Source: Vicinamibacteria bacterium
Lineage (GTDB): Bacteria > Acidobacteriota > Vicinamibacteria > Marinacidobacterales > Marinacidobacteraceae
NCBI GenBank assembly: GCA_963668695.2
Contig: CAXXLQ010000004.1
Coordinates: forward strand, 1,088,001-1,152,000
Length of the DNA: 64,000 nucleotides
Direction: 5' to 3'
In this document: positions 187 through 11,351 of the stretch, in pieces
How positions within the stretch are numbered: position 1 is the first letter of the stretch
How the letters are laid out: each line of letters begins with the position of its first letter
Program-made: the position numbers and the translations under genes
The notes under the pieces: model-generated
The model's database searches: none
What the model was told of the DNA's origin: nothing
Seen by the model: only the letters and a program-made list of their open reading frames with translations

Positions 187-419
187 CAGCCGGTGGTGAA
201 ACTCCCGCGGCCCAGTTCTCCCGGTGGGGGCTCGAGCGGCGATCCATCCCGCCTGAACCGCCCCCCCACCGGGAGAACTGGCGCTTTGCGGCGCTCGGCG
301 TTGCGCTTCGGTCGAAATACACTCGGGCCAGTTCTCCCGGTGGGGGCTCCTCCCTCGCGCGCCTTGTCAGCCGGGCGCCTCCACGCTCTCGGCGCTCACC
401 CGGGTTCCGCCACAGGCTG
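187..419. mobile_element. MITE-like element (family A) with three 18-bp unit insertions
   Basis: Imperfect terminal inverted repeats CAGCCGGTGGTGAAAC / GTTCCGCCACAGGCTG flanked by TTAA and CTAG. The interior is shared with other copies. The right flank CTAG contains the bactofilin stop codon. Confidence 0.8.
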
Positions 420-851
420 CTAGCTGTTTGAGGCGCCGGCCGGCCGCGAACCCCTGGCGTTGCCCGTCCCTTGAGGTCGTGCGCGCTTGAAATCGCGGTG
501 TACCTGGAAGTGCGCGCCATCCGCATCGCTTTGTGCTTCGAGCGTCAGGGTGGCGGCCTGGACGGCGACACCGGCGATGGACCCGCCGGAATGCACGATC
601 ACATCCTGCGCTTCGATCTCCCCGGCGACCCGACCTCCGCTTTCGACTACCACCCGGAGAGCAAAGATCCTCCCGTCGAAGTTTCCCGAATTGCCTACCG
701 AAACTTCGTCCTCCGAGTGGATTTCGCCGACAAATTCGCCGTTCACGTTAAACGGCCCCGGCGCATTGAGTCGGCCCGACAGGCGCGATCCGGATCCGAC
801 GTATCCGCCATGGGCGTCCCGGGATGGGTCTCTTGCCATCGTTCTATTCAC
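420..851 (-). CDS. Bactofilin / polymer-forming cytoskeletal protein
   Basis: Beta-helical repeats (YVGSGSRLSGRL, FNVNGEFVGEI, VVVESGGRVAGEIEAQDVIV). The GTG start overlaps the parB stop. Confidence 0.85.
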   Translation of the reverse strand: MNRTMARDPSRDAHGGYVGSGSRLSGRLNAPGPFNVNGEFVGEIHSEDEVSVGNSGNFDGRIFALRVVVESGGRVAGEIEAQDVIVHSGGSIAGVAVQAATLTLEAQSDADGAHFQVHRDFKRARPQGTGNARGSRPAGASNS

Positions 852-1702
852 TCACTTCCGGTTTCACCGGTCAATAAAACAAAAATGCGGTGGAGGTCAT
901 CCTCTGAGAGAAATTGTATCTGCACGGCGCCACCCTTGCCACGCCGTCGGATTTGCACCGGGAAGCCAACGGATCTCTGCATCCGTTCCTGAGCGTCCCG
1001 GGTGTTGGGATCCACTGCGGCGGGCTTGGACCGGTGAACCCCGCCGAACCCCTCGTCCCGAGCCCGCTTGACCCGTCGCTCAACCTCCCGCACCGAGAGG
1101 TCGCCCTGGACGATCTCTTTGGCCAGTTGAGCCTGGCTCGCGCTTTCGAGCGGAATCAGCGCCCGTCCCGCCGCGGCCCGTAGTTCCCCCGTTTCCACCA
1201 TACGACGGACCTGGGGTGTCAGCTCCAACAGGCGAAGCGTGTTGGTGACTGCCGTCCGGCTTCGTCCCACCTCCGAGGCGATGGCATCGTGGGTCATGCC
1301 TCCCAAATCGGCGAGCCGACGAAAGGCCAGCGCTTCCTCTATCGGGTTGAGATCTTCCCGTTGCAGATTTTCGACCAACGCCAGCAGCCCAACATCTTCA
1401 TTGGACGCTTCACGAACCACGACCGGGACGCGCTCGAGTCCTGCCAATCGGGCTGCCCGCCAGCGGCGCTCGCCGGCAATGACCTGAAACTTACCGGCAT
1501 GTGCCCGGACAACAATGGGTTCGATGACACCCCTGGCGGCGATCGAGGCGGCGAGTCCTTCGAGATCCTCGGCGGCGATCTGAGAGCGGGGCTGCTCGGG
1601 GTTGGGCACCAGTTCCTCGACCCGCAGAGACCGGAAGACCTCCGTCGGAGCAGCCGACGGCAACAAGGCGTCGAGACCGCGCCCTAGCCCTCGTCGCTTC
1701 AT
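848..1702 (-). CDS. parB: Chromosome partitioning protein ParB
   Basis: N-terminal GLGRGLDALL, PNPEQPR, IAGERRWRAA CTP-binding motif, ENLQREDLNPIEEA, and HTH. Confidence 0.97.
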   Translation of the reverse strand: MKRRGLGRGLDALLPSAAPTEVFRSLRVEELVPNPEQPRSQIAAEDLEGLAASIAARGVIEPIVVRAHAGKFQVIAGERRWRAARLAGLERVPVVVREASNEDVGLLALVENLQREDLNPIEEALAFRRLADLGGMTHDAIASEVGRSRTAVTNTLRLLELTPQVRRMVETGELRAAAGRALIPLESASQAQLAKEIVQGDLSVREVERRVKRARDEGFGGVHRSKPAAVDPNTRDAQERMQRSVGFPVQIRRRGKGGAVQIQFLSEDDLHRIFVLLTGETGSE

Positions 1703-2475
1703 CGGGACAGAACCTCCTGCGCCAGTTCGGCGTACGCGACGGCGGCGCTGGACCTCGGATCGAAGACCTGCACTGGAAGTCCATACGAGGGCGCTTCCGC
1801 GGCCCGAACGGAGCGCGGGATGATTGAGCGCAATACCCGCCCGCCGAGCTTGCTCCGCACCTCGGCGATCACTTCCCGCGAGAGATTCGTGCGCCGGTCA
1901 GCCATGGTGAACAGTACCCCCAACAGATCGAGGCCGGGGTTCCATGCCCCCCCGATCCGCGCCACGGTTTCGAGAAGCCGGGACAACCCCTGCATGGCGA
2001 AGAACTCGCATTGGATGGGTACCAGGACCGCCTGGGCGGCCACCAGGGCATTGACGGTCAGCAATCCGAGGGACGGTGGACAGTCCAGCAGAACGAATTC
2101 GATGGCCGGGTCGTGTCGGGCGAAACCCGAGAGGCTCCGACGGAGCCGCAAAGCCCGTCGCTGAGGATCTGGTTCGTCGGCAGCGATCTGCAGGTCCGCG
2201 GCAGCCAGCGAGGGATCTGAGGGGCACGCGATCAGGTTTGGAATGTCGGTTTCCAGAACGGCGCGGACGAAGGGCTCCTTGTCGACAAGAACGTCGTAGA
2301 TGCTGTATCCGTCCTCATCGATCTGAATCCCGAGGCTGGTGGTGAGATTGCTCTGAGGATCGAGATCCACAACCATGCACCGGTGCCCCTCCATCGCGAG
2401 AGCGGCACCCAGATTCACCGTTGTGGTGGTCTTGCCAACGCCTCCCTTCTGGTTGACGACCGCCAGAATCCTCAT
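1699..2475 (-). CDS. parA: Chromosome partitioning ATPase ParA/Soj
   Basis: NQKGGVGKTTT deviant Walker A, DLDPQSN, DCPPSLGLLTVNAL, EAPSYG. Confidence 0.97.
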   Translation of the reverse strand: MRILAVVNQKGGVGKTTTTVNLGAALAMEGHRCMVVDLDPQSNLTTSLGIQIDEDGYSIYDVLVDKEPFVRAVLETDIPNLIACPSDPSLAAADLQIAADEPDPQRRALRLRRSLSGFARHDPAIEFVLLDCPPSLGLLTVNALVAAQAVLVPIQCEFFAMQGLSRLLETVARIGGAWNPGLDLLGVLFTMADRRTNLSREVIAEVRSKLGGRVLRSIIPRSVRAAEAPSYGLPVQVFDPRSSAAVAYAELAQEVLSR

Positions 2476-2520
2476 CTGGAGAATCCCGAGAGTACCACGG
2501 CGATCCGTCCCGGCGCGGTG

Positions 2521-9529: not shown

Positions 9530-9960
9530 GGCCGTCCGGGCAAGCCCAGAACAGCCTGCAACGGGCCAACCGCGAAGGAACCCACGGGATGTCCCCTCGG
9601 GGAAAACGTGGGGAAAACAGCAGGAATTCATGGGGATTCAGATTGGAAACACGGCGCTTTTGTGACGTCCATGGACCACTTCTTTGGTTACCCCCCGGAC
9701 ACCACCGCCGAGCGGGCACTCCGCCAACAACCCTGCAATACCTGAAACTCACGATAATTCAATGGCTTACAGGTTCCATGCCCACTTTCCACAACCCTTA
9801 TTTCTAACTATAATTCCCCTTCTGACAGCTCTCCTTTCTATTGATTCGCCCGATCCGCGCGCCACTCGGATTGTTGTCTCGCGGCGTATCTGACCCCGTA
9901 GTAATCCGCGAGCGATTCTCTGAGTCCTCGCGTCGCCAGTTTCTGATTCAGAAAAGAGCA
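9530..9960. other. oriC: Putative oriC (dnaA-dnaN intergenic)
   Basis: Lower-GC intergenic region with near-consensus DnaA boxes (TGGGGAAAA 9609-9617, CTTTCCACA 9785-9793). These are followed by ACCC and an AT-rich TTATTTCTAACTATAATT tract resembling a DUE/DnaA-trio region. Confidence 0.7.
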
Positions 9961-9964
9961 CTCC

Positions 9965-11089
9965 ATGGACTTCACTACTGACCGAGAAGCCCTCCTGGCT
10001 GAACTGAACCTGTTCGCCGGGGTGGTCGAAAACCGGCCGTCAGACCCCCTTTCCATGTTCTCCAACGTGACCTTTCGTCCTTCGGAAAACGGCTGTGAGC
10101 TGACTGCGTCGGGCGGAGAGATCGGTCTCAGGTCCAGCATTGCGGCGGAAACCACCGGTCAGGGGCTCCTTAGTGTGCCGGTGAGTCTGCTCGCCCGTTG
10201 GCTCAAGGAAGGACGCGACGAGAGCGTCTCGTTCCACGAAACGGACCAGAACTGGATCCAGGTCCGATGCGGCGGGAATGACACGCGCATTCCGGGTCGG
10301 GTCGGAGAACCGCCTTCACTCTCGGAGCCGCCGGTGGAACCGCTTTGTTCCCTGCCCCCGGCAACCTTTGCGACGCTGCTACGAGCTGGTTCCTATGCCT
10401 TCCCGGCAGCGGTGGATGCCTCGGTCGCGACTGCCGGGGCGCAGATCGAAGTCGAAGGGGCAAGTGTGCGGATTGTGTCCTCGGACCACTCGCGCCTGGC
10501 CTACTCGAGCGCCACTTTGGGTGAAGTGGATGGGGCTGCTTCCGGGGGCAAGCAGGCATTCGGGCTCAGCATGAAGGCGATTTCCGAATTGCAGCTGCTC
10601 GCGCGAAGCGGCGATGCGAGCATGCGCTTCTTCGACGGGGAAAATCACCTCTTTCTCGAATTCGGAAATCGGCTGCTCGTCTGCGCCAAGCTTGCAGATC
10701 GGCTGCCGGAGTACGAACACGTGATTCCGCGCGATTGCCCGGTCAGAGTCAGGACCAACCGCGCAGGACTGCTGGGCGCGGCCCAGGCCGCGTTGCCGTT
10801 CTCGACCGGAGATTTCAACCGGGCAAAACTCGAGATCGGCGACGAATTCATCCGGATCGACGTGACGTCGGTGCGCGGAGAAGCGATCTCGGAAGTGGAG
10901 ATTCTCGAAGGGTCGGGCACTCCCCTGACCCTCCACCTCAACCTCGTGCATCTACGCGACTTCGCCAAGAGCTTCGACTGCGGGGTGGTCGCTCTGGAGT
11001 TCAACACCCCAGACACTGCGTTCATCCTGCGTCCGGTGGACGAGGACGACGGCATCGAACATTTCTGCGTCGGGATGCCACTCGTTTGA
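9965..11089 (+). CDS. dnaN: DNA polymerase III beta sliding clamp (divergent)
   Basis: 374 aa after dnaA. Motifs LTASGGEIGL, IVSSDHSRLA, LPEYEHVIP and C-terminal CVGMPLV match clamp motifs loosely. Confidence 0.9.
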   Translation: MDFTTDREALLAELNLFAGVVENRPSDPLSMFSNVTFRPSENGCELTASGGEIGLRSSIAAETTGQGLLSVPVSLLARWLKEGRDESVSFHETDQNWIQVRCGGNDTRIPGRVGEPPSLSEPPVEPLCSLPPATFATLLRAGSYAFPAAVDASVATAGAQIEVEGASVRIVSSDHSRLAYSSATLGEVDGAASGGKQAFGLSMKAISELQLLARSGDASMRFFDGENHLFLEFGNRLLVCAKLADRLPEYEHVIPRDCPVRVRTNRAGLLGAAQAALPFSTGDFNRAKLEIGDEFIRIDVTSVRGEAISEVEILEGSGTPLTLHLNLVHLRDFAKSFDCGVVALEFNTPDTAFILRPVDEDDGIEHFCVGMPLV

Positions 11090-11118
11090 TCGGTCCGGCA
11101 CACCCCGAGCGCGGGTAA

Positions 11119-11351
11119 CAGCCTGTGGTGAAACCCACGCGGCCCAGTTCTCCCGGTGGGGGCTCGGCCGGCGATCCATCCCGGCTGAACCGCGTCGCTA
11201 CGCGCCGCTCATCGTTGCGTTTCGGTCGGAATACGCGCGGTATTCCTCCCTTACGCGCCTTGTCAGCCGGGCCCCCACCGGGAGGACTGGCCCCACCGGG
11301 AGAACTGGGCCTCCCCGGCCTCGGCGCTCACCCGGGTTCCACCACCGGCTG
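11119..11351. mobile_element. MITE-like element (family A) between dnaN and gyrB
   Basis: TIR CAGCCTGTGGTGAAACCC / GGGTTCCACCACCGGCTG with GTAA/TTAA flanks and three 18-bp units. Confidence 0.82.

Follow-up and report, generated by a model that had tools for sequence, protein, structure and literature searches.

An 18-Nucleotide Unit at Five Slots of a Miniature Transposable Element in a Vicinamibacteria Genome: Filled and Empty Alleles Possibly Exchanged by Templated Copying

Introduction

The subject of this work is a short repeated sequence of 18 nucleotides (the unit, GCCAGTYCTCCCGGTGGG) in the genome of a Vicinamibacteria bacterium (Acidobacteriota; GenBank assembly GCA_963668695.2), which was noticed in a stretch of 64,000 nucleotides around the replication origin (contig CAXXLQ010000004.1, positions 1,088,001 to 1,152,000; hereafter, the window). 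In our interpretation, to which we assign a probability of about 0.55, the unit is the core of a cassette that constitutes one of two alleles at five fixed slots of a 179-bp, hairpin-forming miniature inverted-repeat transposable element (MITE), and these slots flip between the filled and the empty state by templated copying. Such repeats lend themselves to the study of a process that has been poorly measured, in which short cassettes are exchanged among hundreds of repeat copies dispersed in a genome; the natural system is well defined, and the flips can be directly counted.

The Unit in the Window and in the Genome

The sequence-only reading of the window from which this work started had counted by hand about 29 units between 0.2 and 11.3 kb and about four elsewhere. 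A search of both strands with at most two mismatches returned 30 matches (shuffled sequences: mean 0.03, with 0 of 100 reaching 30), 27 of them between 211 and 11309 and the other three at 43079, 48789 and 57930, in good agreement with that count. The units lie on both strands as monomers, as four dimers and as one tetramer (Table 1), the latter being also recovered by Tandem Repeats Finder (9369-9452, period 18, 4.6 copies, 96% matches). As had been stated, the unit is not a palindrome: it agrees with its own reverse complement only in the four end bases (CCCA...TGGG).

Across the whole genome (4.10 Mb in four contigs, C1 to C4; 91.7% complete), where up to three mismatches were allowed, the search returned 1701 units, of which 852 are exact and 717 have a single mismatch; they are divided between the forward (862) and the reverse (839) strand and form 1549 arrays. 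Multimerisation, emphasised in the earlier reading, does exist in the form of dimers and of the tetramer, but it is a minor feature: the dimers (141) essentially represent a single inherited allele at one slot (S2, described below) and only four arrays, including the tetramer and a pentamer, have three or more copies.

The Host Element

The host MITE carries the terminal inverted repeat CAGCCKGTGGTGRAACCC at both ends; this sequence has 1084 matches genome-wide, among which 354 facing pairs can be distinguished. Element lengths are quantised as 179+18n nucleotides: 179 (66 copies), 197/198 (32/15), 215/216 (25/15), 233/234 (19/28), 251/252 (27/13) and 269/270 (7/8). Of 319 paired elements, 11 without a clear orientation were dropped. 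A backbone profile was built from 73 unit-free copies and searched in the genome after deletion of the units, which gave 910 hits, including 443 full-length ones. Folding of the backbone yields a long hairpin (z -4.8) and, when units are present, these pair mutually (z -8.1).

The MITE itself is mobile. Numerous copies face empty sites in relatives (four of the placeable copies in genome G001, six in G004), and at C4:46757 the flanks of the copy overlap by 5 nt in both relatives, with GGTAA/GTAA on both sides of the element, which indicates a target duplication of 4-5 bp. Furthermore, MITE copies insert into one another, as seen at 5785-6217 of the window. Regarding an autonomous partner, pairs of terminal inverted repeats 1-20 kb apart enclose ordinary genes (including a phosphotransferase-like and an amidase-like open reading frame, ORF) and no transposases; seven DDE_Tnp_1 loci are without the MITE ends, one of them having unrelated 35-nt inverted repeats, while other transposase families were not searched. 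An Rfam scan of positions 1-12000 gave nothing at the gathering score and three sub-threshold chance matches.

Some side observations concern the backbone and its effect on assemblies. The backbone has 34 columns with a minor allele above 15%, which are near linkage equilibrium (mean r2 of about 0.06 at 11-120 nt); linkage disequilibrium rises again at 121-178 nt (0.155; columns 6-20 versus 160-177), so the hairpin arms co-vary. Short forms of the MITE (window 9338-9500, and 12 copies in this genome with S5-left/S3-right flanks) seem to be without the segment between units of the same orientation, as if such units had served as deletion end points, and genome L073 has a similar short form. The contigs of all four short-read runs stop at MITEs, and where RNA contigs extend into the edge of a MITE, DNA carry-over may be the reason. 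In practical terms, every copy of the MITE interrupts short-read assemblies, and misleading results are to be expected when members of this group are binned or strain-typed.

Slots and Alleles

On the backbone profile, 1380 of the 1701 units fall at five positions (36, 42, 75, 119 and 155), referred to as slots S1 to S5. Tandem variation is confined to S2, the other slots being binary. Among the 443 full copies, the occupancy of S1 to S5 is 0.33, 0.34, 0.45, 0.12 and 0.42, respectively, and 112 copies are unit-free. The unit-free copy at 5969-6146 of the window, formerly proposed to represent the empty state, indeed has all five slots empty, and the aligned copies likewise bear out that different copies fill different slots.

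A filled slot is no clean insertion of 18 nt: the 21-mer S-CCAGTTCTCCCGGTGGGGG-S' stands in place of 2-3 nt, the unit being the core of a cassette of 19-21 nt. Both the first and last bases of the cassette and the T/C variant of the unit are slot-specific. At S3, on the + strand of the element, the empty allele is ATA and the filled one GCCCCCACCGGGAGAACTGGC; the empty and filled junctions quoted in the earlier reading (GGAATACCGGGTGTATTCC versus GGAGCC[unit]CCGGGTG) are real and belong to this slot. The ATA of empty S3 completes a perfect GGAATAC/GTATTCC hairpin, whose partner columns are invariant; quasipalindrome correction was therefore weighed as a conceivable source of this allele, by which the unit might be lost within the element itself. 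At S2, the single-unit allele always has a linked T (GGTCCGG), and the double-unit allele has GGCCCGG and, usually, a C-variant second unit.

Among the full copies, 30 of the 32 possible binary slot combinations are present, and the largest backbone subfamily (136 copies) contains all 16 combinations of S1, S2, S3 and S5. S1 and S2, situated 6 bp apart, are uncorrelated (r = -0.01; 48 joint copies versus 49 expected). S4 is limited to one backbone subfamily. Slot state is linked (|r| 0.94-0.98) only to 1-3 adjacent columns that are themselves part of the allele; at 1-5 nt, the r2 between slots and single-nucleotide polymorphisms (SNPs) is 0.009, versus 0.285 between SNPs. Finally, occupancy has no relation to the age of the copy (rho -0.085, p 0.07).

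Flips in Place

The cassette flips between filled and empty unusually fast. The copy between rnpA and rpmH, which is orthologous in four genomes as judged by its locus-specific end variants, has no units in G008, S5 in G004, and S5 plus S3 in both this genome and G001. In 400-kb syntenic samples, four of the five full-length copies common to this genome and G004 differ in their slots.

The assembly also contains strain-level duplicates, in which C1 and C3 each match sections of C4, whose ends also match each other (C4:13.6-148 kb versus 3783-3914 kb; C1 versus C4:304-421 kb; C3 versus C4:3505-3538 kb), which probably explain its 9.3% "contamination." They comprise 272,808 aligned nucleotides with 1858 mismatches (99.3% identity overall; 96.5-99.9% per block) and 49 paired MITE hits, 43 with equal slots and six that differ. 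Alignments were made for five of the six differing pairs and for two loci from the list of gaps, C3:12514 being dropped as a boundary artefact. The seven aligned loci show seven canonical flips: (i) two at S3; (ii) three between empty and single at S2; and (iii) two between single and double at S2.

Each canonical flip restores the complex allele proper to the slot, linked flank bases included, and the markers located 5-12 nt from the slot are unchanged. One change alone is spontaneous, a microhomology deletion of 15 nt within a unit, whose scar is unlike the canonical empty allele. In two adjacent near-identical copies (C3:19469 and C3:19599), S3 is flipped in both and, in the orthologous copy at C4:967063, three slots have changed together with a block of central subfamily SNPs. 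By our own arithmetic, and with small samples both between species and between strains, the flip frequency is very roughly 3% per slot versus 0.68% per nucleotide. Between strains that differ at 0.68% of positions, a MITE-sized stretch thus undergoes flips and point substitutions at roughly the same frequency.

Occurrence Beyond the Five Slots

The units outside the five slots (321) are mostly in a second repeat family, similar to repetitive extragenic palindromic (REP) sequences, which has 458 anchors in the genome. Members of this family read GGGAACGCCGG-TC-TTCAGACCGGCATCGC when empty and GCCGG[19-mer]CCTTCAG when filled; the unit is in one orientation at 82 copies and in the opposite one at 22. 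The core hairpin of this family, GCCGGTC-TTCA-GACCGGC, is flanked by GGGAAC and ATCGC and often followed by a second GC hairpin that ends in GAAAC; examples in the window are found at 43000-43250, 48700-48900 and 57800-58000. The S1 slot and the second-family site have in common the target GCCGG^C and an insertion of +19. No well-matched unit was found in plainly unique DNA of this genome.

Among the genomes of the same taxonomic family, 21 of 24 contain a 16-nt core of the unit; the 16 genomes sampled from two sister families have none. Other genomes have homologous MITEs with S2, S4, S5, extra slots and 13-nt partial tandems; in other genera the units are near-identical, while the backbones differ. 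The ratio of unit cores to backbone markers is 0.11 in G010 (11/104), 2.3 in this genome (1466/642) and 2.6 in G014 (73/28). This spread, together with the presence of the unit in other repeats and other genera, implies that unit and backbone are separable. The sequence-only reading had proposed as much, and the quantised lengths, the slot combinations and the changes in place lead to the same view. As a side observation, a 6-kb contig of L050 (a record titled as a metagenome-assembled genome of Gammaproteobacteria) has two units in a second-family context that is typical of the acidobacterial group, so this contig may be mis-binned.

A Possible Mechanism

The fact that the flips restore slot-specific alleles favours a short patch being copied from the corresponding slot in other MITE copies over insertion from a common pool. 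Accordingly worded, our proposal is that a flip would be a short-patch, homology-templated event, which might take place by ectopic gene conversion or by single-stranded fragments annealing at the replication fork. The heterology of 18-21 nt would loop out at a size beyond the reach of MutS-type mismatch repair and, because of that, might be fixed independently of neighbouring SNPs. The S2 arrays with at least three units would, in turn, arise by replication slippage. As the markers 5-12 nt away are unchanged, either the copied stretch is very short or mismatches at SNPs are reverted.

Genes for RecA and MutS are present in the genome. According to passages of PMC2920528, mismatch repair deals with 1-bp mismatches and with insertions or deletions of 1-4 bp, and RecA-independent annealing of short single-stranded DNA occurs natively in bacteria.

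Several points weigh against this interpretation. None of the flips has been assigned a donor, and the tracts that they imply are very short, below the lengths usual in RecA-mediated conversion; in so homogeneous a family, co-conversion of the flanks would often be invisible. The presumed escape from mismatch repair is extrapolated from work on Escherichia coli. At the three loci compared for the direction of the strain flips, gain or loss, the MITE is absent or non-orthologous in the outgroups G001, G004 and G008. On the side of the counts, the strain duplicates (about 270 kb) inflate the genome totals by up to about 7%, and units with indels are missed at three or fewer mismatches (the S1 of C4:967063, for instance, was scored as empty). 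Templating cannot explain why the same core is found in at least five slots, in a second repeat family and in extra slots of other genera.

The founding insertions at several unrelated sites would imply insertion without a homologous filled template, whereas the observed flips look templated. A further reading is that the 19-nt core might be a "parasite of parasites," that is, an ultra-small module which has settled in the hairpins of several unrelated repeat families across this family of Vicinamibacteria and spreads within each of them by short-patch copying invisible to repair. This is a tentative idea that we regard as rather doubtful. Were it true, it would represent a second, independent lineage of elements similar to the small dispersed repeats of cyanobacteria, and loop heterologies would behave as freely assorting alleles among about 900 dispersed copies. 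If loops of this size do go unseen by mismatch repair, the same free assortment could affect any short insertion carried by a high-copy repeat, with consequences for the dating and classification of MITE and REP subfamilies.

Alternative Explanations

Another explanation is that the unit is an ultra-small mobile element, like the small dispersed repeats just mentioned, which a putative trans-acting enzyme would insert and excise at GG/GGC in the hairpins of repeats. The recurrence of the same 19-nt core in the five slots, in the REP-like family and in different slots and repeats of other genera speaks for it, as do the target and insertion length common to S1 and the second-family site, the 20-fold variation in the unit/backbone ratio among congeners and the independence of slot state from flanking SNPs. 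Nevertheless, a common pool would not be expected to restore slot-specific cassette ends, flank changes and the T/C variant at each flip, and true units are missing from plainly unique DNA despite abundant GGC sites. Besides, 18 nt would hardly hold two recombination ends of any known type. The enzyme was also looked for: in this genome, at its completeness of 91.7%, neither PF01797 (the Y1 transposases associated with REP sequences, RAYTs; as a control, 6 of 14 genomes had matches) nor PF00078 (reverse transcriptase) had any match. The templated or reverse transcriptase/HUH-type addition formerly suggested survives as copying from homologous copies and is not supported in its enzymatic part. 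We consider a self-standing micro-element unlikely.

Similarly improbable, in our judgement, is that the unit is a candidate binding site for a protein (the MITE transposase or a host factor), kept by selection at the level of the element or of the host, whatever moves it. Such a role would agree with units that are near-identical across genera on diverged backbones, with a major-allele frequency of 0.996 at unit positions 2-18 versus a backbone median of 0.975, with unit orientations that are opposite in the two arms (> at S1 and S2 on the left, < at S5 on the right), as is the case for subterminal binding sites, and with the presence of the unit in several repeat families. But the mismatch threshold flatters the apparent conservation of the units, a quarter of the full copies (112 of 443) do without them, and no partner protein or autonomous element was found in the searches described above. 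Moreover, 25% of the youngest copies (n = 117, with 0 private differences) lack units, the same share as among the others, which means that the units are not needed for recent spread.

Resemblances of the unit to tRNA ends, uptake sequences and CsrA loops were also considered and not retained. Simple inheritance, in which slippage would act on a small number of MITE subfamilies whose slot patterns are fixed, is very hard to sustain. The limitation of S4 to one subfamily, the dimers as a single S2 allele and the tetramer and pentamer, which look like slippage of the second unit, would fit with it. However, five binary characters in 30 haplotypes require recurrent change, which excludes fixed subfamilies with slippage; the 16 combinations inside one subfamily, the independence of the slots from each other and from SNPs, and the flips in place at orthologous and strain-level copies go in the same direction.

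Distribution Around the Origin

The unit had been described as origin-clustered, which holds inside the window and fails genome-wide. At three or fewer mismatches, the 11.1-kb origin region contains 28 units, whereas stretches of this length have 4.65 on average genome-wide (sd 4.8) and at most 30; other 11.1-kb stretches are about equally dense (30, 27, 26 and 25). Backbone profile hits number 9 in this region (genome-wide average 2.47, highest value 17), with 4.65% of such stretches having at least 9. In 50-kb bins, unit density has no relation to the distance from oriC (Spearman rho 0.017, p 0.89): the mean is 16.8 units in the bins closest to it (within 100 kb) versus 19-24 farther away. 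There is no replichore strand bias genome-wide. The orthologous origin region (70-98% identity in aligned pieces) has 27 units here versus 6, 9, 5, 1 and 0 in five congeners, counts in relatives being dependent on assembly quality.

The window lies at the minimum of the cumulative GC skew (1.05 Mb of C4), and the genes identified by Pfam in the neighbourhood are those of bactofilin, ParB, ParA, GidB/RsmG, YidC, YidD, DnaA, DnaN and GyrB. The units are dense here because about 10 MITE fragments are piled into the short parB/parA/rsmG/yidC/rnpA/dnaA/dnaN/gyrB spacers in this species; the local cluster is species-specific and without origin function. A parS palindrome, TGTTTCACGTGAAACA, with what we take to be the parS consensus, is the sole match in the genome at two or fewer mismatches and is separate from the units.

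Organiser sites such as parS, matS and ram are, like the unit, short specific sequences, and the unit is locally dense near parAB and dnaA; such sites are, however, confined to one chromosomal domain and conserved in relatives, whereas the unit is genome-wide and its cluster species-specific. An origin-proximal chromosome organiser, as suggested in the sequence-only reading, would agree with the 27 of 30 window matches in 11 kb around parAB-dnaA-dnaN and with this region being among the densest few of the genome, but it is scarcely credible when 98% of the 1701 units lie outside this region, density has no trend with distance from oriC, the congeners have 0-9 units and a canonical single-copy parS exists separately. 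The finding thus dispels the tempting false lead of a new origin organiser.

Features of the Window

The features of the window and the five slots are listed in Table 1.

Table 1. Repeat copies and related features of the window, with the slots of the MITE in profile coordinates (strand given with respect to the window; > and < denote unit orientation in the element).
Feature	Position	Strand/orientation	Content	Basis
Full-length MITE	187..419	-	S5 + S4 + S3 filled (units 211-228, 265-282, 327-344)	Unit and profile search
Perfect parS-type palindrome	2521..2536	.	Just upstream of parA; not part of the repeat	Motif search; ParA/ParB by Pfam
Full-length MITE	2549..2798	+	S2 dimer (2591-2626), S3 (2660-2677), S5 (2758-2775)	
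Full-length MITE	2817..3061	+	S2 dimer (2859-2894), S3 (2928-2945), S5 (3020-3037)	
MITE tail fragment (profile 125-179)	3060..3132	+	S5 filled (3091-3108)	
Diverged repeat fragment	5640..5784	+	Two degenerate units (5664-5681 +, 5724-5741 -); backbone profile without match	
MITE, profile 1-127	5785..5965	+	S2 dimer (5827-5862), S3 (5896-5913); left part of copy split by nested MITE	
Full-length MITE, 178 nt	5969..6146	+	Five slots empty; nested in copy starting at 5785	
MITE, profile 126-179	6146..6217	+	S5 filled (6176-6193); right part of split copy	
Full-length MITE, rnpA side/rpmH interval	7079..7293	-	S5 (7103-7120) + S3 (7201-7218)	
Truncated MITE (profile 2-71) after dnaA	9338..9478	+	S2 = tetramer 9378-9449	
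Full-length MITE, dnaN/gyrB interval	11119..11351	-	S5 (11143-11160) + S2 dimer (11274-11309); site empty in G001 and G004	
Unit in second, REP-like repeat family	43079..43096	-		
Units in the same kind of REP-like-family context	48789..48806; 57930..57947	-; +		
Slot S1	Profile 36	>	224 at profile 35-36; 227 single-unit	
Slot S2	Profile 42	>	90 single, 140 double, 4 larger arrays (3-5 units)	
Slot S3	Profile 75	<	About 320 copies	
Slot S4	Profile 119	>	63-75 copies	
Slot S5	Profile 155	<	About 340 copies	

Other observations concern genes. The yidC gene (3776-5541, - strand) is split at 4271 into two overlapping ORFs; the contigs of all four runs, RNA included, have an extra T behind 4271, and so the frameshift is an assembly error and yidC no pseudogene. 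Within the window, 15-bp perfect or near-perfect tandem repeats at 26433-26478 (3.1 copies) and 38211-38280 (4.7 copies) are probably in-frame pentapeptide repeats in coding sequence. Elsewhere in the genome, C4:2803874-2826790 consists of 23 kb of internal repeats (self-matches offset in steps of about 350 bp, 90-94% identity), presumably the gene of a giant repeat protein.

Comparison With Known Systems

No description of this repeat was found in the literature searched, supplements being outside its scope. Among described systems, the one studied here most resembles three: (i) BOX elements; (ii) the small dispersed repeats (SDRs) of Nostocaceae; and (iii) REP sequences and the mosaics that they form.

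BOX elements of Streptococcus pneumoniae and S. suis, as presented in passages of PMC3049150, are modular MITE-like composites with terminal inverted repeats and target duplications, in which the number of one module varies between loci and strains; that module folds largely apart, and the elements insert into one another. According to the same passages, boxB forms one tandem array between boxA and boxC (PMC3049150). The unit is instead an 18-nt cassette with five slots apart from each other, each of which is as a rule either filled or empty; both orientations occur, the junctions are slot-specific, and arrays of at least three copies are only 4 of 1549.

The SDRs of Nostocaceae are reportedly the subject of Elhai et al. 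2008. In the descriptions given by citing works (parts of PMC5861425, PMC2884548 and PMC3116915), they are highly repeated units of about 20 nt located inside other repeats, possibly mobile and with a preferred insertion motif, and have been reported only in Nostocaceae (as stated in a passage of PMC5861425). Like units of this class (about 20-27 nt), the one described here is present or absent inside repeat copies, both at the five slots and in the second family. But it belongs to another phylum, and its flips look templated from homologous slots, a comparison made through those citing descriptions.

Bacterial interspersed mosaic elements (BIMEs) are mosaics with linker motifs, a trait reminiscent of the unit. 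REP sequences and REPINs with their RAYTs are, in the relevant parts of PMC3116915, short intergenic units found in both orientations, as singletons, pairs or clusters, in hundreds to thousands of copies. The unit differs from them in that it is not palindromic, comes without a RAYT/Y1 gene in this genome and rides in a MITE of the type with terminal inverted repeats and target site duplications. What is distinctive here is the combination of five binary slots, slot-specific alleles and free assortment.

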